Below are positions 1 to 19,126 of a stretch of DNA of 64,000 bases, piece by piece. The stretch is taken from contig CAZIAH010000003.1 of NCBI GenBank assembly GCA_964537715.1, positions 15,331-79,330 on the forward strand, written 5' to 3'. The first letter of the stretch is position 1. Each line of letters opens with the position of its first letter. A model generated the notes under the pieces. That model was given only the letters and a program-made list of their open reading frames with translations, did not search any database and was not told the origin of the DNA. This DNA comes from an uncultured bacterium. GTDB lineage: Bacteria; Zhuqueibacterota; QNDG01; DSAB01. The position numbers and the translations under genes were made by a program.

Positions 1-18
1 ACAATTATCCTGCTGATT

Positions 19-519: not shown

Positions 520-543
520 AGATAGTGATTTTTCCATGAATCA

Positions 544-583
544 AAAACCCTTTTCCGAACCATCGCGAAAGGGTTTTTTATTT
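544..583 (+). terminator. Rho-independent terminator after the first Spy/CpxP-like gene
   Basis: aaaaccctttt ... aaagggtttt stem of about 10 bp with a 14-nt loop, followed by tttttatttct. Confidence 0.5.
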
Positions 584-659
584 CTGCATCTGGCAATATC
601 CACTGAATCCTCACTTTTAAAAAATCAAAATCTCACCGCAAGATTTTTTCATGAACAAC

Positions 660-676
660 GTCTCAATGATTGAGAC
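660..676. promoter_or_regulatory. Perfect 17-bp palindrome GTCTCAAT-G-ATTGAGAC about 35 bp upstream of the second Spy/CpxP-like gene; candidate operator
   Basis: Read directly from the sequence: gtctcaat g attgagac. It lies between a terminator and the RBS (aaggagacgatcATG). Confidence 0.35.
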
Positions 677-709
677 CGAAATAAAACGGCTTTAAAAAAG
701 GAGACGATC

Positions 710-1177
710 ATGAAAAAGCAATCCCAAATTTTAGCTGCCTTCATTGTCATTGTATTTTGTGTTTTTGGAAGTTCGGGGAAACTGTATTCTCAACCACCAC
801 AAGGCCGCAGACCACCCATGCTCCCGGATTCCATCCATATTGTACAAAGGGTGAACGAATTGGCAAACACCCTGTCTCTTTCTGATCAGCAAAAGGCAGG
901 CATCCTGAAACTGCATTTTGAACATTTTGGCCAAATCAAGCAAATGATGCTGAAAGAAAAGGAACATCAGGAAAAAATGCGAAGCGCTCACGATCAACTC
1001 AAAGAACAATTTGAAGCCTCTATCTTACGTTTATTAACCGATGAACAAAAGACAAAATTTGAAGAATTCTCCAAAACACATCGACCACACCATCCTGAGG
1101 GAAATCACAACCCTGATCATATGGAACCTGGCTTAAGAACGCCGAAGAAAGGAGCACCCAATGAAAATCAGGAATAG
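710..1177 (+). CDS. Spy/CpxP/ZraP-like periplasmic protein (LTXXQ motif family) with signal peptide and Pro/His-rich tail
   Basis: N-terminal signal peptide (MKKQSQILAAFIVIVFCVFG), motifs LSLSDQQKAGILKLHFEHF and LLTDEQKTKFEEF typical of Spy/CpxP helices, and an RBS aaaaggagacgatcATG. Confidence 0.45.
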   Translation: MKKQSQILAAFIVIVFCVFGSSGKLYSQPPQGRRPPMLPDSIHIVQRVNELANTLSLSDQQKAGILKLHFEHFGQIKQMMLKEKEHQEKMRSAHDQLKEQFEASILRLLTDEQKTKFEEFSKTHRPHHPEGNHNPDHMEPGLRTPKKGAPNENQE

Positions 1178-4100
1178 TTTATCCGTCATTATCGCTGTAT
1201 TGTTGTACACCACGATTATTTTGGAAAAACCTGTTCAGGCCCAGGGTGTTGTTCCGCATATCATTGAGAGCATTTCACCGGCCAGTGCCGACGCAGGCAC
1301 ACCCAACCTCACAGTGACCATCACACTGCTAAATCTGGGCACCCCTCCAGTACCCCCATCGGAGGTGACGCCTTCAGGTCTCCGCATCGGAACTCTGGAA
1401 GCCCGATCCATCAGCCGCAGTAATTTGTTGATTACGGCAATCATTGACATCCCTGAAACTGAATCAGGCGGTACAAAAGATGTGGTACTCACATTTCCCG
1501 GACCCAATAATCAAGAGATTGTTTTTACCTTGTCCGGCGGGTTCACAGTGACAGGCAATGACACATCCGACAATCCGGTGATTGTTACTGCGGATACCGG
1601 TGATTATGTCATCGTGGATACGGGTCAGGAAACGTGTTATAATGCCACACAGGCGATCAGCACACCTCGGGTCGGAGAGGACTTTTACGGACAGGATGCA
1701 CAATTCGAAGGGAATCAGCCCAGTTATACCGTCAGCGAGGACGGCCTGACTGTTTATGACAATGTTACCGGTCTCACCTGGACCAGAGGTGCAGACTGGA
1801 ATGGCGATGAAACGGTGGACGTGAACGACAAGTTCACTTATACTGAGGCACTGAATTACGTTTCCGTAATCAACGCTCAGAACTACGGTGATTATAATGA
1901 CTGGCGCCTGCCCAGCATTAAAGAGCTCTATTCCCTGATCGACTACCGTGGCACGGATCCGAGTCCCACCGGGACAAGTGCCTCGGGGTTGGTCCCATTC
2001 ATCAATGACGAGGTCTTCGAGTTCGCGTATGGTGATATATCCGGAGGTGAACGGATCATCGATTCCCAATGGGCTACTACGACGCTCTATGTCAGTACGG
2101 TGATGAATGGCCAGCAGGCCATGTTCGGTGTGAACTTTGCCGACGGGCGAATCAAGGGCTACCCTGCTGACACCAATCCGGGGGGATTTGAGAAGACATT
2201 CTATGTTCGTTTCTGCCGCGGAAATACGGAATATGGGAAAAACAGCTTTACCGATAACGGCGACGGAACCGTAACGGACAGCGCCACCGGATTGATGTGG
2301 TCCCAGTCAGACAACGGCGCTGGCGTGAACTGGGAGGATGCCCTATCCTGGGTCCAGCAGATGAACGATGTAAATTACCTTGGATATAATGACTGGCGTC
2401 TGCCCAACGCCAAGGAACTTCAGAGCCTGGTGGACTATACACGCTCACCCGATACGCACGGCACGGCGGCCATCGATCCACTCTTCAATGCCACGCAGAT
2501 CACGAACGAGGCCGGCCAGCCGGACTACCCATTCTATTGGTCCAGCACGACTTTCCTTCGCTTCGACGGCAGTGCTGACCGAGCCGTCTACGTGGCTTTC
2601 GGAAGGGGCTTGGGTTCGATGGACGGTACGACTGTGATCGACGTACACGGAGCCGGATGCCAGCGAAGCGATTCCAAAGACGGCAACCCGGACGATTATC
2701 CCAATTGGGGCTTCGGCCCCCAGGGCGACGTGCAGCGTGTTTACAATTATGTTCGCCTGGTCCGTACAGTGGAGATATCTGAAACAAGTGAGGACGATTC
2801 CACGGATGACGGCAACGTAACGCTCTTTGCACCTATGGGCAATACGAATACTTATCTCATTGATGCAGACGACGATATCGTACACTCCTGGGAAAGCGAC
2901 TATACTCCTGCCCTGTCGGCCTACCTGTTGGATGACCGATCCCTGCTGCGAACGGCTTCTCCGGGGCGGAATGCGAACAGTGTCTTCGGAAGTGAGGGCG
3001 GTGCCGGAGGCATCGTGGAACAATACGACTGGGAAGGAAACAAAACCTGGGAATTCGAATACAACAGCAGCGACTACCTGCTTCATCACGATATCGAAGC
3101 CCTGCCCAGCGGCAACATTCTGATGATCGCCTGGGAATACAAAAGCGAAACCGAAGCCATCGAAGCGGGCCGGAATCCTTCCCTGCTTTCCGACGGCGAA
3201 CTGTGGCCGGACAAGATTATCGAGGTTGAGCCCGATGGATCATCCGGCGGTACGATCGTGTGGGAATGGCACGTCTGGGATCATTTGATTCAGGACTACG
3301 ACGCTTCCAAAGCCAATTACGGTACCGTCTCCGATCATCCGGAAAAGATCGACATCAACTTTGTGCTGCATCAGCCCAACGCCGACTGGACGCACATCAA
3401 TGGTGTGGATTACAACGCTGATCTGGACCAAATTCTGCTCACGGCACACAACTTCAGCGAGATCTGGATCATTGATCACAATACCACAACCACTGAGGCC
3501 GCGGGTGCGGCAGGCGATCTGCTCTACCGCTGGGGCAATCCTCAGACCTATGGCAGGGGCAACAGTAATGATCAACAACTCTTTGTTCCCCACGACGGTC
3601 AATGGATCGATGCCGGATGTCCCGGTGAGGATGACATTCTTATCTTCAACAACGGACAAAACCGCCAAGACGGAAACTACTCCACTGTGGATGAGATCAC
3701 ACCGCCGTGGAACGGCAGTCGCTACACAATAAACAACGGCTCCGCGTACGAACCGTTCGCGCCCGACTGGACGTACAAAGGCGATCCGGCCTCTTCCTTT
3801 TATGCGGATCACATTTCCGGTGCCCAGCGTCTTCCCGACGGCAGCACCTTGATCTGCGATGGCCCGGCCGGTAAATTCTTTGAAGTCACATCCTCTGGCG
3901 AAACCGTTTGGGAATATACCAACCCGTTCTCTTTCACCACGCCGCAGGGAGAAAGCAACGAAGTGTTTCGTGCAACCTGTTACAACCTAAATGATTTGAA
4001 CACCGGCGTGGAAGATGATATGTATCATGAAAGCGGCTCGACGGGACTTCCTGAAGCATTCACGCTCAATCAGAATTATCCCAATCCCTTTAACCCAACC

Positions 4101-4331
4101 ACTTCCATTACCTATTCACTGACCAAGTCAGCCAATATTGAGCTGGCCGTGTTCAATCTCCAGGGTCAGCGGATTAAGACCCTGATGAGCGGAATGCAGG
4201 CTGCCGGGGATTACGAAGTCACCTGGGACGGAACCAACGAGAATGGAATGAAAGTCGCTTCCGGCATCTATATTTATCAATTGATTACTGGCAATCAGCG
4301 GACGGTAAAAAAAATGACCCTGATGAAATAA
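1161..4331 (+). CDS. Secreted multidomain T9SS cargo: signal peptide, two DUF1566 (Lcl C-terminal) domains, an arylsulfotransferase (ASST)-like beta-propeller, and a Por/T9SS C-terminal sorting domain
   Basis: Two copies of the DUF1566 signature (YGDYNDWRLPSIKELYSLIDY; YLGYNDWRLPNAKELQSLVDY). ASST-like motifs (LLHHDIEALPSGNILMIAWE, WEWHVWDHL, DWTHINGVDYNADLDQILLTAHNFSEIWIIDH). C-terminus LNQNYPNPFNPTTSITYSL...IYIYQL...KKMTLMK matches the T9SS CTD. Confidence 0.65.
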   Translation: MKIRNSLSVIIAVLLYTTIILEKPVQAQGVVPHIIESISPASADAGTPNLTVTITLLNLGTPPVPPSEVTPSGLRIGTLEARSISRSNLLITAIIDIPETESGGTKDVVLTFPGPNNQEIVFTLSGGFTVTGNDTSDNPVIVTADTGDYVIVDTGQETCYNATQAISTPRVGEDFYGQDAQFEGNQPSYTVSEDGLTVYDNVTGLTWTRGADWNGDETVDVNDKFTYTEALNYVSVINAQNYGDYNDWRLPSIKELYSLIDYRGTDPSPTGTSASGLVPFINDEVFEFAYGDISGGERIIDSQWATTTLYVSTVMNGQQAMFGVNFADGRIKGYPADTNPGGFEKTFYVRFCRGNTEYGKNSFTDNGDGTVTDSATGLMWSQSDNGAGVNWEDALSWVQQMNDVNYLGYNDWRLPNAKELQSLVDYTRSPDTHGTAAIDPLFNATQITNEAGQPDYPFYWSSTTFLRFDGSADRAVYVAFGRGLGSMDGTTVIDVHGAGCQRSDSKDGNPDDYPNWGFGPQGDVQRVYNYVRLVRTVEISETSEDDSTDDGNVTLFAPMGNTNTYLIDADDDIVHSWESDYTPALSAYLLDDRSLLRTASPGRNANSVFGSEGGAGGIVEQYDWEGNKTWEFEYNSSDYLLHHDIEALPSGNILMIAWEYKSETEAIEAGRNPSLLSDGELWPDKIIEVEPDGSSGGTIVWEWHVWDHLIQDYDASKANYGTVSDHPEKIDINFVLHQPNADWTHINGVDYNADLDQILLTAHNFSEIWIIDHNTTTTEAAGAAGDLLYRWGNPQTYGRGNSNDQQLFVPHDGQWIDAGCPGEDDILIFNNGQNRQDGNYSTVDEITPPWNGSRYTINNGSAYEPFAPDWTYKGDPASSFYADHISGAQRLPDGSTLICDGPAGKFFEVTSSGETVWEYTNPFSFTTPQGESNEVFRATCYNLNDLNTGVEDDMYHESGSTGLPEAFTLNQNYPNPFNPTTSITYSLTKSANIELAVFNLQGQRIKTLMSGMQAAGDYEVTWDGTNENGMKVASGIYIYQLITGNQRTVKKMTLMK

Positions 4332-4684
4332 GGAAACTCTTCCGGGAATTTTCCATCGGAATGATCAGTCGTACAATTTATGATGCCATTCCTGAAAATA
4401 ATGTGGATTTTCACAAACTGTCTTGTTATATTGATTTGTGCAGTCTGAAAAGTAATAAAAGACTGCCTTTGCGGGATATCCTGATTATTCATTCAATTTT
4501 CCAAGAGTATATCGGGATGTCAAAGCAATCTATGTGAAACTCATGAGGTTGCTTTTCCGTCAAGACGGAACCGCAACGGCAGGGTTCATTCTCAATTTTT
4601 TAGACTGCGATCACTTGCCATATACTGCTATATACAAAAACCAATGTATTTTAAAGCTTCTAAATAATCATAAGGATATAACGA

Positions 4685-6184
4685 ATGGCAATCAATACCT
4701 CTTCCGAAAGAAAACTGTTTTGGTATGCATTCATTTCCTTTACGATCTGGTCGGGAATCATATTTTTTTCAAACCACTATTTGCCCATGGTCGATTTGCC
4801 TCAACACGCCAGTCAGATTTCTATTTGGATGAATATGAATAATTCTGACTATCCCTTTTCAAATCTATTTGAATACAATTGGTTTACCCCTTACCTCGTC
4901 GGATACAGTATCATTCGCGTTCTGACTTTTTTAATGCCTGTCCATATGGCTATTAAAATTGTTATTTTTATAGCATCAATCGCTTTTGTGTACGCATGCT
5001 GTTTGCTGCTTGACATTCATTCAAAAATACAATGGGCGGCGCTGCTGGCTTTTCCGTTAATTTTTAATTTTAACTTCTACTGGGGTTTCGTAAACTACAT
5101 TGTCGCCATTCCAATTGGCTTATTTTTTATTGTCATTGCCAAAAATTTTATCCGTGATTTAACACCAAGAAAGGGATTCATATTATTTCTTCTATCCATC
5201 CTTTTGTTTTTTGCACATGTCTTAATTTATCTATACTGCATGTTCCTTATATTTTTAATGCACCTTATTTATTTTCGTGGATGGAAACAGACAGGCAGAT
5301 TGATACTTACTTTCCTCCCTTCATTCATCATCACAATTCTGTGGTATTTGTATCAAATAAAGTATACTCCACAAGTCACTTTACACCCACAATTCCTATA
5401 CGGCTTATTCAGACTAATTAAATATCCTTCTATTTTGCTTGGCAGCATGCACAAGCAACTCATCCAACAAATAGTGATTACAATATTATTGTTTATAACA
5501 CCACTAATCGCATTTAAAAAAATTCAAGGACGATTGTCTGCATTATTTATAGCAACATTATTCTTTTATTTCTTTTTACCCCATCAAGCCTTTGGGACCT
5601 ATTTCCTTTATCAAAGATTTGCCATATTTATTTTTCCGTTCTATCTTTTATCCATCCAATCGGAGTACAAGAACAGTCGCCATAAGTTACTGCAAATCAT
5701 ATGCATCCTCCTCATCAATGTCTATTGGCTGCATCAAACGGATAAACAATTCACTTTATTTAATTATGAGGCAGGTTATTATACGCAGATTGAAAAGGAA
5801 ATCCCATCACACAAAAGGGTGTTATCCATGATATATCTCAGTGATTCTATTTTTTTAGATCATGGCCCCTACTTTCTTCACTTCCCAACATGGTATGCAT
5901 CCAACAGATCGGGGGTTGTGGACTTCTCCTTTGCCTATTTCTTTCCTGAACTGATCCATTATAAAAAAGGACTTTACCCAAAAGCCGATCCATATTTTGT
6001 ATGGCATCCCAATATCTTCAAATGGGAGGATCATAGTTTCTATGATTATTATGTTTTAAAATTACCTTATGGTCATGAAGCGATGACAGAATTCCCATAC
6101 CCGAATGACAACAAACTTGTATTGGTAAAAAACATAGAAAATGCATGGTATCTATTTAAGAGGATTGAAAATGAAGAAGAATAA
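4685..6184 (+). CDS. Polytopic membrane protein (about 11-12 TM helices) with a roughly 130-aa C-terminal soluble domain; candidate GT-C-fold polyprenyl-phosphate-dependent glycosyltransferase
   Basis: Highly hydrophobic F/I/L-rich ORF in a low-GC island. The architecture (TM bundle plus a C-terminal periplasmic-like domain) and the adjacent GtrB-like GT2 gene suggest a GT-C partner. No family-specific motif was recognised. Confidence 0.45.
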   Translation: MAINTSSERKLFWYAFISFTIWSGIIFFSNHYLPMVDLPQHASQISIWMNMNNSDYPFSNLFEYNWFTPYLVGYSIIRVLTFLMPVHMAIKIVIFIASIAFVYACCLLLDIHSKIQWAALLAFPLIFNFNFYWGFVNYIVAIPIGLFFIVIAKNFIRDLTPRKGFILFLLSILLFFAHVLIYLYCMFLIFLMHLIYFRGWKQTGRLILTFLPSFIITILWYLYQIKYTPQVTLHPQFLYGLFRLIKYPSILLGSMHKQLIQQIVITILLFITPLIAFKKIQGRLSALFIATLFFYFFLPHQAFGTYFLYQRFAIFIFPFYLLSIQSEYKNSRHKLLQIICILLINVYWLHQTDKQFTLFNYEAGYYTQIEKEIPSHKRVLSMIYLSDSIFLDHGPYFLHFPTWYASNRSGVVDFSFAYFFPELIHYKKGLYPKADPYFVWHPNIFKWEDHSFYDYYVLKLPYGHEAMTEFPYPNDNKLVLVKNIENAWYLFKRIENEEE

Positions 6185-7118
6185 ATGTGTTTCAATAATC
6201 ATCCCGGTTTATAATGAAGAAGACTTAATCCGGGAAACACACGACCGGATCAAATCGACTCTCGAAAAAATAAAAACGGTCAATTATGAACTCATCTTTG
6301 TTAACGATGGAAGTACGGATCACTCATTACAAATATTAAAACAATTGTATGATCATGACAGTAAGATGGTTCTTATCAATTTTTCAAAGAATTTTGGTCA
6401 TCAAAACGCATTAACAGCAGGGCTGGATTATGCCGATGGTGATGCGATTGTGTTTATCGATGCGGATCTGCAAGATCCTCCCGAAGTCATTCAAGAAATG
6501 ATTGAAAAATGGCAATCAGGGTATGATGTTGTTTATGGCGTTCGTATACACAGAAAGGGCGAAAACATATTTAAAAAAACAACTGCGTCCTTTTTTTATA
6601 GAATGTTAAACTTTTTGTCAGATACAAAAATTCCGGTGGATACCGGCGATTTCCGATTAATGAGCCGTAAGGTTGTTGAAGCTGTAAAAAAACTCGAAGA
6701 AAGAGACCGTTATCTTCGTGGCATGGTCGCATGGGTCGGTTTTCCTCAAGCATCAGTGTATTATGAAAGAAATCAGCGCATTTCGGGAAAAACAAAATAT
6801 TCCTTCAAAAAAATGTCTTCGCTTGCATTGAATGCGATTATCTCTTTTTCAACAAAACCTTTAAAAATCGCGGTCTTTATCGGTATACTCATGTCCTCAT
6901 TTAGTTTTATCTATCTTATTTATATTTTATATATCAGATTTGTCCTAAAAACAGCCATTTTAGGTTGGGCATCAATTGCCTTGTTAGTGACTTTGTTCTC
7001 AGGCATTAACCTTATTTTTTTAGGAATCATTGGCAATTACATTGGTAGTATTGTTCATGAAGTTAAAAAACGTCCAATTTATTTAATCGAAAGCATTTTA
7101 CCGAAGAGTACAAAATGA
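6171..7118 (+). CDS. GT2 polyprenyl-phosphate sugar synthase (GtrB/ArnC/DPM1-like) with two C-terminal TM helices
   Basis: VSIIIPVYNEE...FVNDGSTD...DADLQDPP motifs of GT-A/GT2, a C-terminal membrane anchor, and an ATG at 6171 preceded by agga (the ORF track began at the upstream ATG 6141). It overlaps the upstream gene by 14 bp. Confidence 0.85.
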   Translation: MKKNKCVSIIIPVYNEEDLIRETHDRIKSTLEKIKTVNYELIFVNDGSTDHSLQILKQLYDHDSKMVLINFSKNFGHQNALTAGLDYADGDAIVFIDADLQDPPEVIQEMIEKWQSGYDVVYGVRIHRKGENIFKKTTASFFYRMLNFLSDTKIPVDTGDFRLMSRKVVEAVKKLEERDRYLRGMVAWVGFPQASVYYERNQRISGKTKYSFKKMSSLALNAIISFSTKPLKIAVFIGILMSSFSFIYLIYILYIRFVLKTAILGWASIALLVTLFSGINLIFLGIIGNYIGSIVHEVKKRPIYLIESILPKSTK

Positions 7119-7930
7119 CAATGAATGATTCAGAACAAAGGGAACGTCTCACTATAGAAAAATCATTTCATGACTCATTGACGGACATCATTGAGTCAGA
7201 ACAATTATGTATCTATGAGAATTTTGAATCGATCATTGCTCAGGAAAACGCATCCATTTTAAAATGGTTTAATAACCTAAAAAACAAAAAAATTCTTGAT
7301 TTGGGCTGCGGTTTGGGAGAAGCCTCGCTTTTTTTTAACAGTTTAGATGCTGAAGTGTATTCACAGGATATCTCTTTGCAACAATTAATAAAATTAAAAA
7401 AGAATGCGATCGATTACAACGCTCCTATCTCCTTAAATCTCTCCGATGCCAGTGCTTTACCGTTTAAAAATAGTACATTTGATTTTGTATACGGGAATGG
7501 TGTTTTACATCATATTGATATTCCTACTGCAACCAATGAAATCAAACGGATACTCAAACCAAACGGGAAGGCTGCGTTCATCGATCCTTTACCCTACAAT
7601 CCAGCAATCAAGATATATCGGAATATGGCTCGAAAATTTAGAAGTTCAACAGAAAAACCCCTTTCCAAAGCACAGATCAAATGGATTTGTAAACAGTTTT
7701 CAAATAGTCAACATGAAGTTTTCTGGTTAACCTCATTGATTGTCTTTTTTTATATGTATTTTATCGAAAAAGTTCACCCCTCCGAAGATCGTTACTGGAA
7801 ACGATTGTATAGAAACGAAAAAAAATATTCAACATTTTTAAAACCTTTCATCTGCATTGATAAATATTTAAAGAAAATTCCCGGCCTATCATGGTTGGCT
7901 TGGAATGTTGTCATCCTGGTTAAAAAATAA
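7115..7930 (+). CDS. Class I SAM-dependent methyltransferase
   Basis: Motif I ILDLGCGLGEAS, motif post-I, Methyltransf_11/25-like. 4-bp overlap with the GT2 gene. Confidence 0.75.
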   Translation: MTMNDSEQRERLTIEKSFHDSLTDIIESEQLCIYENFESIIAQENASILKWFNNLKNKKILDLGCGLGEASLFFNSLDAEVYSQDISLQQLIKLKKNAIDYNAPISLNLSDASALPFKNSTFDFVYGNGVLHHIDIPTATNEIKRILKPNGKAAFIDPLPYNPAIKIYRNMARKFRSSTEKPLSKAQIKWICKQFSNSQHEVFWLTSLIVFFYMYFIEKVHPSEDRYWKRLYRNEKKYSTFLKPFICIDKYLKKIPGLSWLAWNVVILVKK

Positions 7931-7956
7931 TTTTGACAAATTTCTTTGGATTCGGA

Positions 7957-10900
7957 TTACTTCATGAGTACCATTTTCTTCACATCGACAAATCGTTTCT
8001 CTTTTTCTTCTCTGCTTTTTATTTCAATCCGATAAATATAAATTCCCGTTGCGACTTTTTGACCGGAACCATTCCGGCCGTCCCAGATTACATGATGATA
8101 ACCGGCTGGCTTCATCTCTTGAACAAACTCACGGACTACCTGTCCTTTTATATCATAAATCACCAATTTCACTTCGGACGGCTGGGGCAGATGATACTCG
8201 ATTCTGGTTTCGGGATTGAATGGATTGGGATAGTTTTGAAGCAGGGCATACTCTTCGGGGATCCCCGATCTCTGATCCACAACACCTACTCCTTCTGAAA
8301 TATGAACACCAATCGGTCTGGAATACAATGTTAAATCTGTAACAATGGTATTCGTGATCTGACATACATAAGATCCGGAATCGGATTCTGTTGCCGATTC
8401 TATCACATAAGCTAAACTGTCCGCATCCGTAACTTCTTCACCATTTTTGAACCATTGATACACATTGGCCGTACCACCTACTTCGACTGATAAGATTATA
8501 GAAGAACCGACGTCTATCGTTGTATCCTGCTTTTCCCCCACACTATCCTGGGGCCAATAACTAAAATTGGGAATTCGAATATTGGGCTCGATATCTTCGA
8601 ATGTCAGCCGGTTGTCTTCTGCTGTCAGATCCGTCAATGTAGGAATAGAAGATAAATCCGGCAAACCGGTAAACTGATTTGAATTGATATAGAATCTTTG
8701 CAGTATGGTTAAATCTGTAAACTGACTTGGTATACTGCCTTCTAAATGATTCTGATGAATGTAACAAAATTGAAGTGCTGTACATTGACTGATTTCCTCA
8801 GGAACCGGTCCTGTGAACTGATTATAAAAAAGTTCTAATTGATACAATTGACTCAGGTCTCCGATCTCGGAAGGTATTGAACCTGAAAGCTGGTTGTTCG
8901 CCAATCTCAATATTCTTAATTTAGAGAGATTACCAATTTCCTGAGGAATTTCACCGGTTAACTGGTTTCCGTCCAGATATAAAAAGTATAACTCCGTCAA
9001 ATTGCATATCTCAGGGGGGATGGAATCTGAGAGTTGATTGTTATTGAGATACAATCCTACCAGATTGGTGCAATTCCCGATCTCAGGAGGAATGGGACCA
9101 TTCAATTCATTTCTGTCCAGATAAAAATCTGATAAATTGGGTAATTTGCCAATCTCAGGAGGTATCGATCCGGTGAACTGATTATTGCCCATATAGAGAT
9201 ATTCCACACTGGCCAAATTTCCAATCTCTGGTGGAATCTCACCTACTAACTGGTTATCGGAAAGATATAAATAGGTGACTGCTGTTAAGTTCTCAATCTC
9301 AGGAGGAACGGTTCCATTAAGATTGTTGTTATCCAAATCTACAATTTTAACACGTTCATCTTCAACTGTGATACCGAACCAGGTATCAAGCGAACCTGCC
9401 AGCCAGTTTGTGTGATTTGTCCAGTTTGTACCGTCGGTGCTATCATAAAGTGTAACAAGTGCGAGAGAATCTTGTTCGATATTTCCAGGAATTTTAACTG
9501 TTATAGTTGTTGTATGAGAATAGAGAGTTAATTCAGTAGCCACACTATTTGTGATTTGACAGACATAACTGCCCTCATCTTCAATGGTTGCGAAATTGAT
9601 TGTATATGTATCGGAAACAGCTCCGGAAAGGATGGTCTGATCGTGCAGCCACTGATACTGATTGTTTACGCCTCCCACATCCACAATAAGTGGGAAACTG
9701 GCACCGTAATCAATCGTTGTATCCTGGGCTTCTCCGACACTATCTTGGGGTGCATAGAAAAAAGCGGGAATGGTGATATTGGGTTCAATATCCTCGAATG
9801 TGAATCGATTATCTTGTGCGTAAAGAGTATGTAATTCCGGAAGTAAAGAAAGATTCGGCAGTCCATCCAATTGGTTGTAATTAATACGAAGCGTTTTCAG
9901 TGCAATAAGATTGGTAAATGCATCCGGAACCGCACCAGCCAATTGATTGTCCGTTAAATTGATATAAGTCGCTTTTATCAGATTGCCCATTTCTGAAGGG
10001 ATCGAACCTGTCAATTCATTACCGTCAAGATAGCATTGTTTGACTTCAATTAGATTGCCGATTTCTTCGGGGATCGAACCATCAAGAGCATTGTTGTCTA
10101 AAATCAAATGGGTAAGACTGGTTAGATTACCAATTGCAGGCGGAATAGAACCAGTAAGCTGGTTGTTATTCAGATACAGCGATGTCAATTGGATTAGATT
10201 ACCAATCTCAGCTGGAATCGTATCTCCCAGTTGATTGTTGTCCAAATCCAAAGACGTCAGTTCGGTCAAATCGCCAATTTCAGGAGGAATGATTCCGTCT
10301 AAATTGTTAAACGCTAAAACGATTCGACTGATTCTATCGTCCGAAACCGTAATCCCGTACCATGTGAGTACCGAACCCGAGAGCCAGTTATCATTGTTTG
10401 TCCAATGAGCTCCATCCGTACTGTTATACAACGCAACGAGAGCAAGCGAATCTTGCTCAAATTCCGGATTTGCACCAACCACTGTTACATGAATTGGACG
10501 ACTGTAAATTGTCAGTCCTGGAACCACGGTATTGGTAACACGACAGATATAATCACCTGCATCAGCAGACGAGACATAACCAATTGTATACTCATCCGAT
10601 GTGGCTCCCGGAATCATCGAATACCCGTTGAACCACTGATATTGATTACTGGCTCCTCCGACACTTACCAAAAAGGAGAGGCTAGTCCCATAGGTTACGG
10701 TTGTATCCTTTTCTGTTCCGACACTATTCTGGGGAGTGTAATCAAAATTGGAAATCATAATATTCGGTTCCAGATCCTCAAATGTGAACCGGTTATTATA
10801 GACAGAAAAGTAGCTCAAATCTGGCAAAGAGGACAGATCCGGCAATTCATCAAGCTGATTATAATCGACATAAAAAGACGTCAGCTTCTCTAGATTTGTA

Positions 10901-12030
10901 AACGTACCTGGCACCGCACCTGTTAACTGATTGTTGCCGAGATCTAAAAACATCATATTCGGTAAAAATCCCATTTCCTCCGGAATAGCTCCTGAAAATT
11001 GATTATGCGCAAGATAGAGCGACGCAAGTTGCGCTAATTTTCCAATCTCCGCTGGAATGGAATCAGAAAGCTGATTCAAACTGATATTTAAATAGGACAA
11101 ATTGGTCAAATCCCCAATTTCAGGAGGAATCGGACCTTCCAACTGATTGTCATTGAGATACAAGGATAACAAAGTTGTCAGATTCCCGATATCAGCAGGT
11201 ATTGTACCTTCAAATTGATTATAACTCAAATCGAGTGTTTGAATACTTACCAGATCACCAATCTCTGGAGGAATAGGACCGGAAAACTGGTTGTTATAGA
11301 AATAACAGTATATCAAATCATCTAGATTGCCAATCTCTGGAGGAATAGGGCTATTAAGCTGGTTATACGATAAATCCAGCACCATCAGATTGCTCAGGTT
11401 GCCAATTTCCTGTGGTATTTGACCTGTAAGCTGATTGCTATTTAAATAGATATCTTTGCATTGATCAAGATTCCCTATTTCAGGAGGAATGGAACCTGTG
11501 AGCTGATTTTCTGAAAGAATAAGTGTGATTAAATTGACAATATCCCCTATCCATAGCGGAATCGTTCCTGAAATCTGATTATCTCTCAATTCAAGGTGTG
11601 ACAAACGTGTTAAATTCTGGATTCCTGCAGGAATAGAATCGCCGAATTGGTTGCAATTCAAATACAAATTATTCAAGTAAATGAGATTACCAATTTCTTC
11701 AGGAATAGGTCCACTGAGTTGATTTAGACTGAGGTCCAGATAGGTCAGTGTATCCAGATCACCGATCTCTGATGGGAGAGTCCCCGTCAAGTTATTTCCG
11801 TGTAATTTTATTGAGGTCACCCGTTCATTCTCCACATCAATACCATACCAATCGGCCACCGGTCCAGTAAGCCAGTTATCTTTATTGGTCCAGTTGGTTC
11901 CATCGGTACTATCGTACAAAGCGACAAGTGCCAGAGAATCCTGCTCGAGAACTTGCCCTATTATATCGGAAGGATTTAAAAGAAGAATAACAACGAAAGT
12001 GGACAGCCAAGTAAAAGATTGCTTTCTCAT
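7957..12030 (-). CDS. Giant secreted leucine-rich-repeat protein. Three tandem modules, each an LRRNT-like cap plus about 10-12 plant-specific-type 24-residue LRRs plus an Ig-like domain, ending in a T9SS C-terminal sorting domain.
   Basis: Signal peptide. Repeats match LxxLxxLxLxxNxLxGxIPxEIGNL (e.g. LTYLDLSLNQLSGPIPEEIGNL). Caps EQDSLALVALYDSTDGTNWTNKDNWL...WYGI occur three times. Ig-like GDY-C-TN motifs (AGDYICRVTNTVV; GSYVCQITNS). CTD LLQNYPNPFNPETRIEYHL...IYIYRI. Strong RBS aaaaggagggggaaATG. Confidence 0.85.
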   Translation of the reverse strand: MRKQSFTWLSTFVVILLLNPSDIIGQVLEQDSLALVALYDSTDGTNWTNKDNWLTGPVADWYGIDVENERVTSIKLHGNNLTGTLPSEIGDLDTLTYLDLSLNQLSGPIPEEIGNLIYLNNLYLNCNQFGDSIPAGIQNLTRLSHLELRDNQISGTIPLWIGDIVNLITLILSENQLTGSIPPEIGNLDQCKDIYLNSNQLTGQIPQEIGNLSNLMVLDLSYNQLNSPIPPEIGNLDDLIYCYFYNNQFSGPIPPEIGDLVSIQTLDLSYNQFEGTIPADIGNLTTLLSLYLNDNQLEGPIPPEIGDLTNLSYLNISLNQLSDSIPAEIGKLAQLASLYLAHNQFSGAIPEEMGFLPNMMFLDLGNNQLTGAVPGTFTNLEKLTSFYVDYNQLDELPDLSSLPDLSYFSVYNNRFTFEDLEPNIMISNFDYTPQNSVGTEKDTTVTYGTSLSFLVSVGGASNQYQWFNGYSMIPGATSDEYTIGYVSSADAGDYICRVTNTVVPGLTIYSRPIHVTVVGANPEFEQDSLALVALYNSTDGAHWTNNDNWLSGSVLTWYGITVSDDRISRIVLAFNNLDGIIPPEIGDLTELTSLDLDNNQLGDTIPAEIGNLIQLTSLYLNNNQLTGSIPPAIGNLTSLTHLILDNNALDGSIPEEIGNLIEVKQCYLDGNELTGSIPSEMGNLIKATYINLTDNQLAGAVPDAFTNLIALKTLRINYNQLDGLPNLSLLPELHTLYAQDNRFTFEDIEPNITIPAFFYAPQDSVGEAQDTTIDYGASFPLIVDVGGVNNQYQWLHDQTILSGAVSDTYTINFATIEDEGSYVCQITNSVATELTLYSHTTTITVKIPGNIEQDSLALVTLYDSTDGTNWTNHTNWLAGSLDTWFGITVEDERVKIVDLDNNNLNGTVPPEIENLTAVTYLYLSDNQLVGEIPPEIGNLASVEYLYMGNNQFTGSIPPEIGKLPNLSDFYLDRNELNGPIPPEIGNCTNLVGLYLNNNQLSDSIPPEICNLTELYFLYLDGNQLTGEIPQEIGNLSKLRILRLANNQLSGSIPSEIGDLSQLYQLELFYNQFTGPVPEEISQCTALQFCYIHQNHLEGSIPSQFTDLTILQRFYINSNQFTGLPDLSSIPTLTDLTAEDNRLTFEDIEPNIRIPNFSYWPQDSVGEKQDTTIDVGSSIILSVEVGGTANVYQWFKNGEEVTDADSLAYVIESATESDSGSYVCQITNTIVTDLTLYSRPIGVHISEGVGVVDQRSGIPEEYALLQNYPNPFNPETRIEYHLPQPSEVKLVIYDIKGQVVREFVQEMKPAGYHHVIWDGRNGSGQKVATGIYIYRIEIKSREEKEKRFVDVKKMVLMK

Positions 12031-13180: not shown

Positions 13181-13186
13181 TTCTTG

Positions 13187-14089
13187 CTATCCCCGGACAA
13201 AAATATTTTTGATCACATGTCCGGCTATCTGGGGATTCTCCTTCATTCTCCGCATGCAATAGCCGTACCACTGCTCCCCGTATGGTACATAGATCCTGAG
13301 CCCATGTCCGTCGGCCACCAATTCATTTCTCATATTTTCAGTCACGCCTAAAAGCATCTGAAACTCGTATTGGAATTTGGGAACCCGGTATTCATTCAGC
13401 ATCTTGAGCGACCGGTTGACCAGCACCCGGTCGTGGGTCGCGATACCCGCATAGGATTTCGATTCGAAAAGCATCTTGACCAGTGCCATGAAATTATCAC
13501 GTATCTTTTCCCGATCATTGAAAGCGATTTACGGGGATTCATCGTAAATGCCCTTGCAGACCCGGATATTGGCAATACCGTCTTTGATCAACTGTTCGAC
13601 ATCGCCCTGACTGCGTTTCATATAGGCCTGGATTACCGTTCCCACATTCTTGTAATCCTTCCGCAGTTTTCGATAGATAGCGAGTGTATCATCCGTGCAC
13701 GTGGAATCTTCCATGTCGATCCGGACGAAATTTTTGACTGCTTCTGCTCTCTGGACAATTTCTTTCACATGCTCGTAGCATCGGTTCTTATCTAAACGAA
13801 GTCCGAGCTGTGTCAACTTCAGGGACAACGTTGCCTCAAGATTATTTTTCTGGATCGCATCCAGAACTTCGAGACACTGCATTCTGGCAATGTTCGCTTC
13901 CTCAAGGCTCGTAATATCTTCTCCAAGCACATCTATGGTCACCTGACACCCGATTTCGTTCAAGTCCTGTGTCTTGGCCACTGCACTGGACAGAGTTTTA
14001 CCGGCAATGTATCGGCGAGAGAAAATCCATATAAATGACTTCGGGAAAACCGGCATGACGCCGACCACCAGACGACTAAACCATTTCAT
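13187..14089 (-). pseudogene. putA: Proline dehydrogenase (PutA/ProDH family) interrupted by a single in-frame TAA at 13529-13531. The N-part (14089..13532) and C-part (13528..13187) are in the same frame.
   Basis: N-part ...IRVCKGIYDESP* is followed in frame by IAFNDREKIRDNF MALVKMLFESKSYAGIATHD...GLRIYVPYGEQWYGYCMRRMKENP (ProDH C-terminus). The likely true start is the ATG at 14089, ATGA-overlapping the upstream GT2 stop. Confidence 0.6.
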
Positions 14090-15030
14090 GAGCGTATTCC
14101 TTCCAACGGTTCTGTAATGGTTTGTTTTTTTAATGTCAATTGATAGCCTCGATAAATATGATAAAAGACAAGAAAATGAATAACGCTCCGGCGCATTGGA
14201 CGAGGAACTATCGGAATGATTGCACGGCTCCATTTTGCGAGCCAGGATTGTAAGAACAGCCGCAAAAATCGATTTTGAAACGAACCGGAAATCAACCGGT
14301 CGAATCGAAAAAGCTGCGTGAATTCGGGATATTTTTTTTGAATATAGGGAAGATTGATGCTTCCAAATTCTTCCATCTGACGAAAGTAAGTGGACAAATC
14401 TTTATTCAATTCTGAATATCCGACCGCCGATACATTGAAAATCACGGGGAGCCGGAATGTTTTCCACAGACGATAGGCAAATTCGGTATCGCCTCCACCA
14501 TAGGTGACCATGCTTCCATCCTGGCCATCAACCTGAACAAAGTAGTGACTTTCAAAAGCGACATTTTGCGTGATCAGATAGTAGGCAGGAATCTCATCTC
14601 CATTCTTATATTTATTCTTTCCCCGGTGTTGGAGATAATCGGAAAGGTAACTGGTTTTCGAATCGGTATAGACAACATCACCCAAAGAAATACAATTTTT
14701 GTTCTTCAGAAGTGTGAGATGTTTTTCGAGTAAATCCGGTGCAGGACGTATATCCGAATCGAACATAACGAGGTATTTCGACGTAATGTGTCCGAGCGCT
14801 AGATTCCTGGCTGGATTTCTTCCCTTGCGTTTCCCATCGGGATGGGTGAGCACTTTAAATTCGAACGGATAACGGGTTTCTGACAGATACTCCAGCGTTC
14901 CGTCAGTCGAACCATCCACACAGATCAGCAGACGGAAATCTTTCACAGTCTGCGCTTCAAATCCGGCCAAACAGCCTTCCAGTTCATCCAGATTGTTGTA
15001 GGTGGCTATGATAATATCAAACAGTGCCAT
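14086..15030 (-). CDS. Glycosyltransferase family 2
   Basis: DIIIATYNNLDELEGCLAGFEAQT...LICVDGSTDGT GT-A motifs. Confidence 0.8.
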   Translation of the reverse strand: MALFDIIIATYNNLDELEGCLAGFEAQTVKDFRLLICVDGSTDGTLEYLSETRYPFEFKVLTHPDGKRKGRNPARNLALGHITSKYLVMFDSDIRPAPDLLEKHLTLLKNKNCISLGDVVYTDSKTSYLSDYLQHRGKNKYKNGDEIPAYYLITQNVAFESHYFVQVDGQDGSMVTYGGGDTEFAYRLWKTFRLPVIFNVSAVGYSELNKDLSTYFRQMEEFGSINLPYIQKKYPEFTQLFRFDRLISGSFQNRFLRLFLQSWLAKWSRAIIPIVPRPMRRSVIHFLVFYHIYRGYQLTLKKQTITEPLEGIRS

Positions 15031-15123
15031 ATTACTCGATGGTTAAAAAAACAGCGTCCCTGATAGTCAGGATTACTCCAATTCTTGCTTCATCCTGAGC
15101 GCAGTCGAAGGATGATAAGTCGA

Positions 15124-16212
15124 TCAAACAAAATGATTCCCCAATGTCTTCCGATATACATCCAGCATCCTTTCCGCAACCCGGTTCCAGAGAAAATTTC
15201 TTTGAATGTGCTTTTTCAATGTATCTGTTTTCTGGCTATTTAAAGCCTTCTCGATTGCGGTACGAATAGATCGAACCGAATAGGGATTGACGTATTCTGC
15301 TTGATCCTCAAAATACTCCTGCGTGCCGCCGTGTGGTGTAATTACGATGTTCGCTCCGGCAAGGCCGGCCTCGAGTGCCGCGATTCCCGGCGTTTCGAAT
15401 TTGGACGGTAAAGCAAACACCCTGCATGCTGCATATGCCGACGCCAGCAGCGGAGAATCGTGATCGAGTCCATCGATGAGAATCAGATTTTTATTTTTTT
15501 TTGCCTCACTCAGACACAATTCGGCCTCCCGGGAAGACACGACCTGACCGATGATCACGGCAGGATGATCGATCCGGCTCAGCGCCCGAATCAGGGAAAG
15601 CACATTTTTTCGATCCGGACCGATATGCCCGACATTGAGAATAAAATCCCTGACTCCATATTTTTTTTGAAACAGTGCCGGATCAGCCGATAGAAATTGT
15701 TCCGACACTCCGTTTGGAATCCAGTGAATCTTCTCTTTCGGAACGCACAATCCCTTTTCGATCAAACGGGCTTCCGCCATCGTGTTCGGCATGACGGCTT
15801 CGGCCCAATGACAGATATCGCGGGGAAAATGCCAGTCCCACCAAATTCCCCGAATCATCTTTCGCATTCCTCGGTAAAGCACATTCGCGGAACGGATCAG
15901 ACCGGCGGAATGACGGCTATAAAAAATCGGCATGACGGCAAACTTGATGTTCCGATTTTTCAAATCCCTTGCAAGGTGAAAATTTCCCAGATTTGCCCCG
16001 AACAACTGGATGAGATCGCAATCCAGAACCTTCTCCTTTTCATCCCACATATCGAAATATCCGATTTCGACGCCCATGCGTCTTAGATGCGCCTTCGTTT
16101 CGACAATGGCCACATGGGGGCCGCCGTGCACAAACATCACGGATTGATAGCATGCAAAATTAATTTTCATGATTTCATTTTTCCGAAAATGTTTTCTATT
16201 CTGTAAATCCAA
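15124..16212 (-). CDS. Glycosyltransferase family 4 (GT-B, group 1)
   Basis: C-terminal PSKFETPGIAALEAGLAGANIVITPHGGTQEY E-x7-E-type motif. Confidence 0.75.
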   Translation of the reverse strand: MDLQNRKHFRKNEIMKINFACYQSVMFVHGGPHVAIVETKAHLRRMGVEIGYFDMWDEKEKVLDCDLIQLFGANLGNFHLARDLKNRNIKFAVMPIFYSRHSAGLIRSANVLYRGMRKMIRGIWWDWHFPRDICHWAEAVMPNTMAEARLIEKGLCVPKEKIHWIPNGVSEQFLSADPALFQKKYGVRDFILNVGHIGPDRKNVLSLIRALSRIDHPAVIIGQVVSSREAELCLSEAKKNKNLILIDGLDHDSPLLASAYAACRVFALPSKFETPGIAALEAGLAGANIVITPHGGTQEYFEDQAEYVNPYSVRSIRTAIEKALNSQKTDTLKKHIQRNFLWNRVAERMLDVYRKTLGNHFV

Positions 16213-17720
16213 AGACGCCAGAAATCCCGTCTCCTGACACCGGGAGAATGAACCGGGATTGATTGATCCCGATTTTTCCAGACAAGTTTGCTTATATCAA
16301 TCGTTTTCTGAAAAGGAAACACAGTGTATTTTTTGTCAGGAGAAATCGCTCTGAGATAAACGGAACCATCTCCATTTCGAACATCCAAAATTAGTTTTTG
16401 ATTTCGAACCACCGGACTCCAATCAATGCGGGCTCTCCGTTTCCACCAAGTGCTGTAATTCCCCATGCTCATTGATGGAATGTTTTGTTGCTGAATTTCA
16501 CGGAATATCTCTTGAAAGACAGCGAAATTGCGATGTCCCGGATGGTGATAGATAAAAATGGGCTCTTCTAACATAAATTTCTGTTGGATTACATTTTGAT
16601 AATACGAAAGATACTGCTGCTTCGTATGTCTGGCCCGTCGGAGATTGCCGATACTGACTGGATGAATCGGCACCTGGAGAACCGTAGAAAAGGAATTATT
16701 CAAATAGGGATAAAATGGGAGATCGTCGTAGTCCAATCCAAATTCAGAGGAATATTCGAATTGCATCTCCTGAACAACTTTTCCCAAAGCCGGATTCCAT
16801 TCGCCATACGGCGCCGCGTATCCCTTTGGATGAATCCCTGCATTGCGAAGAATATTCAATCCCTCAACAATATTTTTTTTATTTGTTTGATAATCCGGAA
16901 AAATCCTGTGGCGGTAACAATGGTATCCGATCTCCTGATCCTTCATGTCGCGATAAAATCGAATCCAATTGTACTGGCTCTTGGTTTCGACAAACCAGGT
17001 GGCCGGAATGCGGTTCTTCTGGCAGAGAGAATAAAGTGTCTCGAGCTCCTGCTGCGTACCAAAATCAGTATCTACACGGAAAGAAAAGACGTTCTTTTCT
17101 CCATTGGGAAACTGCCAGAGATGAACAAACGGAACGTTGCGTCGGCGATAGAGATAAATCAAACACTCCTGAATGATGTGCCGGAGACCACCCTTTGAAA
17201 CCTTCGAGACTTTTTCCGAAGGCAGTCTCTTCCCATATTCGGAATGGAAATATTTTTGTCTAACATCCGCGCAAAGCAGTGACGCGATCAATCCTGAAGG
17301 CAGAACAACCACGTTTCCCTTGCCATAGGACAAAACACCAATCGCATATTTTCCCATCTGATTCCTGCAATGAGTGGCACTCTTTGGGACTTGCATCCGC
17401 CGAAAAAGATCGCAATCGAAGGAACGAGAAAAAAGCGGCCCTTCCTCTGCGTACAGTGTTTTCAGATAGACTCGCTTTACCTTCTGGGAAAGAAGGTGTT
17501 TGGCAGCATCGGCTTCGACAAGGATCGATCCGCCGTTATTCAGGTATTCGAGAATGTATTTTGTGTTCTGCTTCTTTCCGAAATAAGTAACGATCAATAC
17601 GACAAACGCATCCGTGGAAACGGATCGATCCATATTGATTTTTTCGAAGGGTACACCGATCTGCCCAAGAACAGTCTTCCAGCCCGGCGTCTCTTCCGAT
17701 ATGCCGATAGTCAATCTCAA
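16167..17720 (-). CDS. Polysaccharide deacetylase (NodB-homology) family protein with an N-terminal domain of unknown function
   Basis: FSFRVDTDFGT...ATWFVETK and HCYRH motifs resembling CE4/NodB. The start is uncertain (overlaps the GT4 gene by 46 bp). Confidence 0.5.
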   Translation of the reverse strand: MRLTIGISEETPGWKTVLGQIGVPFEKINMDRSVSTDAFVVLIVTYFGKKQNTKYILEYLNNGGSILVEADAAKHLLSQKVKRVYLKTLYAEEGPLFSRSFDCDLFRRMQVPKSATHCRNQMGKYAIGVLSYGKGNVVVLPSGLIASLLCADVRQKYFHSEYGKRLPSEKVSKVSKGGLRHIIQECLIYLYRRRNVPFVHLWQFPNGEKNVFSFRVDTDFGTQQELETLYSLCQKNRIPATWFVETKSQYNWIRFYRDMKDQEIGYHCYRHRIFPDYQTNKKNIVEGLNILRNAGIHPKGYAAPYGEWNPALGKVVQEMQFEYSSEFGLDYDDLPFYPYLNNSFSTVLQVPIHPVSIGNLRRARHTKQQYLSYYQNVIQQKFMLEEPIFIYHHPGHRNFAVFQEIFREIQQQNIPSMSMGNYSTWWKRRARIDWSPVVRNQKLILDVRNGDGSVYLRAISPDKKYTVFPFQKTIDISKLVWKNRDQSIPVHSPGVRRRDFWRLWIYRIENIFGKMKS

Positions 17721-19126
17721 ATAAAAATCCTTTTCAGATAACGGATTTCATCCAAACCAATGTTTCCCAGACAGACGATCAGAGGAACAGCAGCAGCCAA
17801 TGCAATGATCAATTTCACGGGAAAAATAATCCGGACATGAAAAAGCAGACACCATGACAAACATAACGTTCCCAGAGAGGGCAGCATCACGCTTCGGGTA
17901 AAATGCAGAACCACATGCTGTTTCAATGCCGCCAGCATGACGACGAGAGATGTGATTTCGAAACCGATCAGGGCAAACACCACACCGATCGATCCCATCG
18001 GTCTGATCAAAATAATGAGCATCAAAAAAAAGACACCCAATCCCCAGAGAAGCGATTTGGTATACACCTTCTCCTGTTCGATCCCGATCAGCGTAAACGT
18101 AAATACCGAATTGATCAATTTTAATACAAACAAAGTCACCATCACCTGAAAAATCGGAACGGCACCCACAAACGCTTCTCCATAAATTAACCTGACGAGC
18201 AAATCCCCGCTCAATACGGCAATCAGGCCAACCAGAAGAACAAATGCAGTGGTGAGTTTCAAGACATGATTGACATTCTCTTCCAGTCTTTCCGGAAATT
18301 GGCGAAAACAGCGGCTGATGTTCGGGAAAAAAACCGCATAAAAAATCCGATCAAATATCAACAGAAAAAAGATAAATTTGAATCCGGCGCTGAACAATCC
18401 GACATCCGTTCGGGTTACCACCAAACCCAGATAAATGACCGGAAATTGTGTCACGAACTGGGCAATGAGTGCCGCGATTCCAAGGGGGAATGCTTCCTTC
18501 AACAGGGAACGCACCTGCAATCGACTCCGTAGAAAATGAAAGGGAACTTTCTGGCTCTGAAATCTTATCCACAAATAAATCATATTGATTAGCATTCCGG
18601 TGACCCATGCCCATGCAACCCATACAATGTCCTCCGAAGTTTTCACAAATACCAGCAGAAAAGCAAGATAACAAATCATTCCCGCCAATTGTCCGCCGGC
18701 AATCGTTTTCAACTTTTGTGTCCCATGAAAAAACCAATCCAATAGAAAAGCTGCAGGAAAAACACCTAGCAAATAAATAGCGATCAAATGAAATAGATGA
18801 ATTGAAGTAACAAATGTTTTTACAATAATGACGCCTGCTGTATAGGCCGCAATGGAAAGAATCAGACGTCCACTGAAAATACTGATTGTCAAATGGCCGA
18901 CATCTTCACTCTTCGCCGCTACTTTTCTGGTACCTAAAACCGAAAGCCCGCTGTTTCCCACAATCATGCCATAAGAAAGAACGGCCAGACCAATATTGAT
19001 CGTTCCAAAATCCGAGGGACCGAGAATCCGCGCCAGATAGGCGACCGCCGCCATTCCGACCAAACGGCTAAGAGCATCTCCCGAATAAAGAAAGAGGATA
19101 TTTTTAAAATGGGCGGTTATTCGCAT
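17717..19126 (-). CDS. Wzx-like oligosaccharide flippase (MOP/polysaccharide biosynthesis protein family)
   Basis: 469 aa with about 12-14 TM helices; PST-family layout in an EPS gene context. Confidence 0.75.
   Translation of the reverse strand: MRITAHFKNILFLYSGDALSRLVGMAAVAYLARILGPSDFGTINIGLAVLSYGMIVGNSGLSVLGTRKVAAKSEDVGHLTISIFSGRLILSIAAYTAGVIIVKTFVTSIHLFHLIAIYLLGVFPAAFLLDWFFHGTQKLKTIAGGQLAGMICYLAFLLVFVKTSEDIVWVAWAWVTGMLINMIYLWIRFQSQKVPFHFLRSRLQVRSLLKEAFPLGIAALIAQFVTQFPVIYLGLVVTRTDVGLFSAGFKFIFFLLIFDRIFYAVFFPNISRCFRQFPERLEENVNHVLKLTTAFVLLVGLIAVLSGDLLVRLIYGEAFVGAVPIFQVMVTLFVLKLINSVFTFTLIGIEQEKVYTKSLLWGLGVFFLMLIILIRPMGSIGVVFALIGFEITSLVVMLAALKQHVVLHFTRSVMLPSLGTLCLSWCLLFHVRIIFPVKLIIALAAAVPLIVCLGNIGLDEIRYLKRIFI

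Follow-up and report, generated by a model that had tools for sequence, protein, structure and literature searches.

The DNA analyzed here is a stretch of 64,000 nucleotides (the window) from an uncultured bacterium (GenBank assembly GCA_964537715.1, contig CAZIAH010000003.1, positions 15,331 to 79,330 of the forward strand). Close to its left end, three genes lie between two genes for cargo proteins of the type IX secretion system (T9SS): X, encoding a membrane protein of 499 amino acids (aa); GT2, encoding a GtrB-like glycosyltransferase; and MT, encoding a methyltransferase of 271 aa. The three are referred to as the trio (X-GT2-MT), and the subject of this report is their probable role as a glycosylation module.

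Three overlapping genes on one strand had been claimed in an initial annotation, and the open reading frames (ORFs) bore this out (4685-6184, 6141/6171-7118, and 7115-7930; Table 1). The 4-bp overlap between GT2 and MT was present as described, and the 14-bp overlap between X and GT2 holds only if GT2 starts at the ATG at 6171 (MKKNK), as in one public gene call; another public gene call uses the first ATG, at 6141, which gives an overlap of 44 bp. The overlaps suggest that the trio is an operon. The segment had originally been drawn at 4400-7930, of which 4685-7930 is coding and 4400-4684 is non-coding. The promoter would lie in the stretch upstream (4332-4684), where no family-supported ORF was found (ORF 4534-4842 had no Pfam match) and sigma-70-like matches were no commoner than in shuffled sequence. 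No terminator was found downstream of the trio, and 26 bp separate the MT stop from the stop codon of the right cargo gene. No Rfam match was obtained in window positions 1-14000.

Table 1. Coordinates of the trio, its boundaries, and the nearby polysaccharide cluster (window positions; GC, guanine plus cytosine content)
Feature	Position	Strand	Remarks
T9SS cargo gene, left boundary	1161..4331	+	Lcl_C, arylsulfotransferase-like, and T9SS sorting domains; 52.7% GC
Non-coding stretch upstream of the trio, presumed promoter region	4332..4684	+	353 bp, 36% GC
X, 499-aa integral membrane protein, GT-C fold	4685..6184	+	Unnamed sequence family
GT2, GtrB-type polyprenyl-phosphate glycosyltransferase, 315 aa	6171..7118	+	GT-A (GT2) domain and two C-terminal membrane helices
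GT2, alternative start, 325 aa	6141..7118	+	First ATG
MT, 271-aa class I S-adenosylmethionine (SAM)-dependent methyltransferase	7115..7930	+	
Convergent T9SS cargo gene, right boundary	7957..12030	-	Leucine-rich repeats, Ig domains, T9SS sorting domain; 40.7% GC
Wzx-type polysaccharide cluster	14086..20118	-	GT2, GT4/GT1, 517-aa protein with polysaccharide deacetylase domain, Polysacc_synt flippase, GT1

The membrane protein X and its GtrB-like neighbor

X was found to have about 11 membrane helices, followed by a C-terminal soluble domain (about residues 371-499). Its structure model, of high confidence, was assigned a GT-C fold by two structure-comparison methods in agreement, and the helical core superposed on solved GT-C enzymes, the longest alignment being with ArnT. 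The protein, first put forward as a GT-C candidate, therefore models as a GT-C glycosyltransferase and not as a transporter. The catalytic or metal-binding acidic residue of GT-C enzymes is found in their first extracytoplasmic loop, which follows membrane helix 1. In X, Asp37 (D37; motif LPMVDLPQHA) was invariant in 70 homologs. In the model it comes after helix 6-29 (membrane helix 1) and before helix 38-50, where a loop of 60 residues, poor in lysine and arginine, begins.

By sequence, X had no Pfam or NCBIfam match, none of the profiles of the named GT-C families (PMT, PMT_2/ArnT, STT3, GT87, Dpy19, and others in Pfam/NCBIfam) matched it, and a PDB-sequence profile search returned noise only. 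When 70 members of its family were compared with Pfam, no match was significant (best E 0.0029-0.4). An exhaustive search yielded 2,271 cluster representatives at E <= 1e-3 and 354 at <= 1e-30 (clusters defined at 50% identity), and X was at most 34% identical to any of the 1.8 billion representatives searched. Among the matches listed, the relatives were about 500 aa long and all the named ones were called 'hypothetical'. The family spans Acidobacteriota, Myxococcota, Beta- and Gammaproteobacteria, Elusimicrobiota, and others. No X homolog was present in 50,697 phage records or in a plasmid collection, and a phage or plasmid origin of the trio was rejected on these grounds. No description of this GT-C family was found in the full-text literature searched, the coverage of which was incomplete, and the family appears to be new.

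The GT2 protein is a full-length GtrB homolog. It matched PF00535 (E 1.3e-40), and its residues 7-308 were aligned to residues 28-328 of the polyprenyl-phosphate glucosyltransferase GtrB of Synechocystis (PDB 5EKP; E 6.8e-88), with the IDADLQDPPE (DXD-type) and NTGDFRLM (GDF) motifs kept. Hydrophobic segments at 235-253 and 269-287 correspond to two C-terminal membrane helices, in agreement with the polyprenyl-phosphate sugar synthase with a two-helix C-terminal anchor that had been read from the gene initially. ArnC structures matched more weakly (E 1e-43 to 1e-41). The best NCBIfam model, PgfS (NF047588), was matched over the full length with 298 bits, below its cut-off of 500, and the ArnC equivalog (NF007986) scored 170.7 bits against a cut-off of 529.

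The surroundings of X relatives were surveyed in 79 genomic loci (numbered L). GT2 was by far the commonest neighbor family: a GtrB-like GT2 (at least 33% identity, full length) was clustered with X in 23 of the 79 genomes, a class I methyltransferase in 25, and both in 17. A gene of the GtrA family (PF04138, E about 1e-25) was located beside GT2 and X in seven loci (L021, L027, L028, L039, L041, L070, and L080), where X sits in the GtrC position of the canonical GtrA-GtrB-GT-C arrangement. Candidates for culturable carriers of X, GT2, and MT are Paraburkholderia antibiotica G-4-1-8 (L025), P. sejongensis (L039), Burkholderia spp. (L041, L048, L055, L061, and L063), and Cupriavidus basilensis (L060). 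The order X-GT2-MT with overlapping genes recurred in Archangium (L003), L082/83, L084/85, and a JGI contig, which hold the closest relatives of the window X; in these trios X was 30-33%, GT2 48-49%, and MT 43-44% identical to the window proteins, and the other neighbors were unrelated. Of the Gtr/Arn-type layout proposed at first, the Gtr part is thus upheld by conserved synteny in distant genomes, and the trio was rejected as an Arn system, the ArnC score being sub-threshold and X having no ArnT/PMT_2 match in Pfam. The conserved adjacency of X to GtrB-type synthases suggests that it may be a transferase using a polyprenyl-phosphate-linked donor.

Further arrangements were observed around X homologs. 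Tandem paralogs of X (three copies in L011; two each in L022, L023, L028, L054, and L072) suggest diversified acceptor or linkage specificity. Other GT-C genes (PMT_2) were found beside or near X homologs (L088, 1686-3179; L079, 2888-4900), and several periplasmic glycosyltransferases may share one donor pathway. An AsnB-like glutamine-dependent amidotransferase (Asn_synthase, E 3e-98) was encoded near X homologs in 11 loci (L002, L007, L009, L011, L014, L015, L017, L029, L030, L036, and L053), including a fixed X / MT / AsnB / GT2 arrangement in the Myxococcota loci L007, L014, L015, and L017.

The methyltransferase and the proposed pathway

The third gene had been called a SAM methyltransferase, and its product was confirmed as belonging to class I. 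Its N-terminal helix is specific to the family, and its C-terminal extension is conserved and in part hydrophobic. Neither a signal peptide nor a membrane helix was detected, and MT is therefore taken to be cytoplasmic. Structure comparison gave no substrate assignment. The subfamily comprises at least 244 clusters of proteins of about 270 aa, and MT is under purifying selection (ratio of nonsynonymous to synonymous substitution rates, dN/dS, 0.097 between the window and contig L089, described below).

The contexts of four MT homologs were sampled, and in all four GT2 and MT were side by side with a GT-C gene, which was not X but PMT_2 (three contexts) or GT87 (one). Three of the four were surface-polysaccharide clusters (Wzx/Wzy, GT4, MBOAT/AlgX-like). 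GT2 was 45-46% identical to that of the window in the two contexts compared; across operons with X, PMT_2, or GT87 as the GT-C, identities were 45-49% for GT2 and 38-45% for MT. No sequence relation was found between X and the PMT_2 protein (hhalign probability 0.15). GT2 and MT are thus the constant part, and the GT-C partner varies. Such a pattern is consistent with a conserved pair that makes the donor and is combined with exchangeable transferases, each specific for its acceptor; on the simplest reading, GT2 and MT would build a methylated lipid-linked donor and the GT-C would supply the acceptor specificity.

The trio is probably a glycosylation module of the Gtr type that acts outside the cytoplasm and includes a methylation step of its own. 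The GtrB homolog would, judging by its homology, move a sugar (a hexose as the default guess) from a nucleotide sugar onto undecaprenyl phosphate at the cytoplasmic face of the inner membrane. MT would methylate this sugar while it is accessible from the cytoplasm, most likely on the lipid carrier; this is the least certain step, and methylation is placed before flipping because SAM and MT are both cytoplasmic. A flippase encoded elsewhere would bring the lipid-linked sugar to the periplasmic face, where X, given its fold, would transfer it to an acceptor via the invariant Asp37 in the first periplasmic loop.

Several observations weigh against this pathway or parts of it. For about half of the X homologs, a GT2 gene is lacking from the nearest 4-6 kb. 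No gene for the flippase step was found in the 64-kb window, and a profile built from the seven X-adjacent GtrA proteins revealed no GtrA in any frame (best E 0.76). The sugar cannot be read from the sequence, and the best NCBIfam models of the GT2 protein (PgfS, ArnC) were sub-threshold and name different sugars. Asp37 was placed by the secondary structure of the model, not by residue-level superposition on a solved GT-C enzyme. The top structural matches of X included protein (Pmt4, STT3), lipid A (ArnT), and glycan transferases.

Instead of the donor sugar, MT might methylate a precursor of the acceptor in the cytoplasm or some unrelated small molecule, and be linked to the other two genes by regulation or cluster membership only. 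This is considered rather unlikely: in each of the four contexts sampled, and in every X-type trio, the MT subfamily had an orthologous GtrB-like gene and a gene for a GT-C as direct neighbors, whatever the GT-C family and often with the reading frames overlapping, and the conserved C-terminal extension, being partly hydrophobic, fits a membrane-bound substrate. The same alternative is favored by the frequency of methyltransferases in polysaccharide clusters, by the several different methyltransferase subfamilies that adjoin X homologs, by the UbiE-like label of MT in the source annotations, and by the lack of a substrate assignment from structure comparison.

For the glycosylation pathway proposed above, the acceptor is most likely a surface polysaccharide, e.g., the O-chain of lipopolysaccharide (LPS) or a capsule-like glycan, and a polysaccharide is given a somewhat better than even chance. 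Gene neighborhoods favor it, as three of the four contexts of MT homologs are polysaccharide clusters and the host, judging by KdsB, probably makes LPS. A Wzx-type polysaccharide cluster is located 6 kb from the trio (Table 1) and is a candidate source of the acceptor glycan. It is improbable that X acts like ArnT on a lipid of the membrane (lipid A/core or a different glycolipid) and so alters surface charge or barrier. The structural matches of X include that enzyme, and against such a role stand the absence of adjacent ArnA/B/D-type genes, the low score of the ArnC model (171 bits, cut-off 529), the lack of an ArnT/PMT_2 Pfam match for X, and the GT2 protein being far closer to GtrB (E 7e-88) than to ArnC.

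With the same donor pathway, X could also glycosylate proteins in a PMT-, PglB-, or PgfM-like manner, with targets that could include the neighboring T9SS cargo, or the glycan or lipid anchor to which the T9SS sortase attaches it; a protein or T9SS-related acceptor is judged unlikely. The trio adjoins T9SS cargo both in the window and in contig L089, and these belong to the same lineage. An independent hint comes from L082/83 (64% GC). Here the closest of the related trios is directly preceded by two genes that matched the T9SS sortase PorU, one with E 2.6e-50 (positions 308-733, C25 peptidase domain) and one with E 1.9e-14 (N-terminal region), both below the curated cut-off; they are two in-frame ORFs (354 and 405 aa; L082, 2442-4784), into which an in-frame stop divides the PorU-like gene in both of two independent assemblies, and the C-terminal third is missing. 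No T9SS gene was seen beside the trio in Archangium (L003, Myxococcota), in L084, or in the JGI contig, and no T9SS machinery other than cargo was found in the window, where a partial SprA match (20.8 bits, cut-off 200) was rejected as noise. The link between the trio and T9SS cargo is a weak lead.

On the broadest reading, which is held less likely than not, the GT2-MT pair would be a widespread donor module, of which no description was found in the literature searched, making a methylated undecaprenyl phosphate-linked sugar at the cytoplasmic face, from which GT-C enzymes of unrelated families (X, PMT_2, GT87) would add O-methyl sugars to surface glycans; in the Fibrobacterota-Chlorobiota-Bacteroidota (FCB) group, the target may be the glycan that anchors T9SS cargo.

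Host, composition, and age of the trio

The rest of the window is ordinary chromosome, encoding PyrG, RpoN, FabF, a BamA-like protein, KdsB, a membrane pyrophosphatase, and glycoside hydrolases. PyrG (36328-37923) shares 66-73% of its residues with sequences that carry the labels candidate division KSB1, Calditrichota, or 'bacterium', and other sequences reach identities of 90-92%; from this the host was identified as an uncultured FCB-group bacterium. It is not a classical member of Bacteroidota, although the window encodes T9SS cargo. KdsB shows that the host makes 3-deoxy-D-manno-oct-2-ulosonic acid (Kdo), and the host is therefore probably diderm with LPS. A group of glycoside hydrolases at 52948-59609 (GH35 beta-galactosidase, a second beta-galactosidase-like protein, and a GH3-type xylosidase/glucosidase) is unrelated to the trio.

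T9SS cargo on both sides of the trio, as first annotated, was verified: each of the two flanking genes codes for a type A sorting domain, with scores of 37.8 and 31.1 bits against a curated TIGR04183 cut-off of 23. The AT-richness of the segment was subjected to a check set beforehand, windowed measurement of GC, and the dip is real: 4685-7930 has 34.6% GC, compared with 44.3% for the whole window. Windows of equal size elsewhere had a mean of 44.75% (standard deviation 2.15, minimum 39.5%), so that no stretch of the window is lower in GC than the trio, which lies about 4.7 standard deviations under the mean. Flanks of about 50% GC had also been claimed, which is correct for the left cargo gene and not for the right one (Table 1). 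GC at the first, second, and third codon positions (GC1, GC2, and GC3) was 0.37-0.41, 0.28-0.31, and 0.33-0.38 in the trio genes, compared with about 0.5/0.35/0.48 in the other genes of the window; the depression at all three positions extends to the soluble proteins (GT2, MT). The left cargo gene, which abuts the trio, is a second compositional outlier, with the highest GC3 of the window (0.61; mean 44% GC), and its relatives in L090 and L091 are tandem paralogs.

The trio segment is not marked by an integrase, a transposase, a tRNA, or direct repeats on its two sides, and the term 'island' therefore describes its composition only. The only tRNA of the window is at 50.5 kb. An imperfect inverted repeat (4194-4278 / 8031-8115; 71-82% complementary) brackets the trio and is the only long repeat flanking it. 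It was rejected as a transposon end: the DNA codes for the homologous T9SS sorting domains of the convergent cargo genes, and the repeat arises because the sorting-domain-coding ends of both genes face the trio.

The JGI metagenome contig L089, 88.2% identical in nucleotides to window positions 6894-8238, carries the end of GT2, MT (91% aa identity), and the convergent cargo gene with its T9SS sorting domain. The synonymous divergence (dS) of MT between the two strains was 0.43, and the trio part of L089 has 34.8% GC, compared with 43.7% for the remainder of the contig. A trio shared at this dS and with a dN/dS of 0.097 indicates that the module is functional and older than the split of the two strains.

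Composition, as the one line of evidence, suggests that the module was acquired from an AT-rich donor, which is plausible. The known relatives of the trio are all in genomes of 62-70% GC, and the window X is on a long lone branch of the neighbor-joining tree, with no donor lineage indicated. The low GC could instead be typical of surface-glycan and membrane-protein genes long resident in this genome, a possibility given clearly less weight than not. It would agree with the lack of mobility genes, tRNA, and flanking repeats, with a segment common to two strains at dS 0.43 and equally low in GC (34.6% / 34.8%), and with the GC3 of the trio (0.33-0.38), which overlaps that of the lowest host genes (0.33-0.40). 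It is opposed by GC1 and GC2 of the soluble GT2 and MT, well under those of all other window genes, by the absence of FCB-group genomes from the 80 best X-family genomic loci, by the identity of X to anything in 1.8 billion representatives (at most 34%), and by L091, a distant syntenic relative with a run of cargo genes without the trio. L091 is too distant to count as an empty site, and L090 ends at a contig edge; a metagenome scan for an empty site between the cargo genes, using the left cargo protein, gave only distant relatives (at most 72% identity).

Significance and comparison with known systems

Extracytoplasmic three-component glycosylation is a main bacterial route to diversify surface antigens and phage receptors. 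To this route the present analysis adds an unnamed GT-C family of about 2,270 clusters at 50% identity that lacks a Pfam or NCBIfam model, the window copy being one divergent member in an uncultured KSB1/Calditrichota-like bacterium. It also gives a rule by which a gene for X that adjoins a GtrB-like gene can be annotated as a periplasmic glycosyltransferase, whether GtrA is present or not. Because the GT2-MT pair is constant and its GT-C partner changes, methylation may be built into the lipid-linked donor stage; if true, this would explain the route of some O-methyl sugars to surface glycans and provide a portable donor module for glycoengineering. No description of a cassette of GtrB, methyltransferase, and GT-C was found in the full-text literature searched (coverage incomplete). 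Two things appear to be new: a GT-C family that has no name, and the conserved pairing of GT2 with MT, which occurs with GT-C partners from different families.

The prototype is O-antigen glucosylation by GtrA/GtrB/Gtr(type) in Shigella flexneri and Salmonella, as summarized in the Fig. 1 legend of PMC11127046. As there, a GtrB-type undecaprenyl phosphate-sugar synthase is encoded beside a GT-C-type membrane transferase (serotype-specific in Gtr), the genes are tightly packed and low in GC, and transfer is expected at the periplasmic face; the seven loci with X relatives in the GtrC position beside GtrA and GtrB complete the likeness. The trio differs in having no GtrA in the window, in having no flanking phage or mobility genes, whereas Gtr serotype conversion is prophage-borne, in the unnamed sequence family of X, and in the dedicated methyltransferase that belongs to its conserved cassette.

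With the ArnC/ArnT pathway of lipid A aminoarabinose modification, the trio shares a GT2 synthase and a GT-C protein of about 500-550 aa with a C-terminal periplasmic domain. As proposed for the trio, a cytoplasmic step, in that case deformylation by ArnD, alters the lipid-linked sugar before it is flipped. Unlike Arn, the trio has a GT2 nearer to GtrB than to ArnC (E 7e-88 vs 1e-43), no adjacent ArnA/B/D/E/F genes, and an X without detectable sequence similarity to ArnT families.

The Gram-positive GtrB/CsbB and GT-C systems (CsbB-YfhO, GtrB-PgtC2, and PgfS-PgfM; PMC7389260, PMC12041528) follow the same two-enzyme logic, and PgfS is the best NCBIfam model for the GT2 of the trio, although the score is under the cut-off of 500. 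Those systems are without a methyltransferase, unlike the trio, and their acceptors (teichoic acids and Ser/Thr-rich disordered protein regions) are not indicated for the trio, whose Kdo-making host is probably diderm with LPS.

In the three-component pentofuranose side-chain systems with a GT136 GT-C (PMC11127046), a lipid-linked monosaccharide donor is likewise made in more than one cytoplasmic step, and the GT-C defined a new family. There, unlike in the trio, the donor is made by a UbiA-like phosphoribosyltransferase and a phosphatase, with no methylation step.

A precedent for the methylation is AglP, as the MT of the trio is likewise proposed to be a cytoplasmic SAM methyltransferase acting on a polyprenol-linked sugar. 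AglP, of N-glycosylation in Haloferax volcanii, methylates the dolichol-linked glycan before GT-C transfer. That pathway is archaeal and involves an oligosaccharide and an STT3-type transferase, unlike the trio, and the two are likened by role, not by sequence. The trio extends a well-known mechanism and is no surprise in kind.

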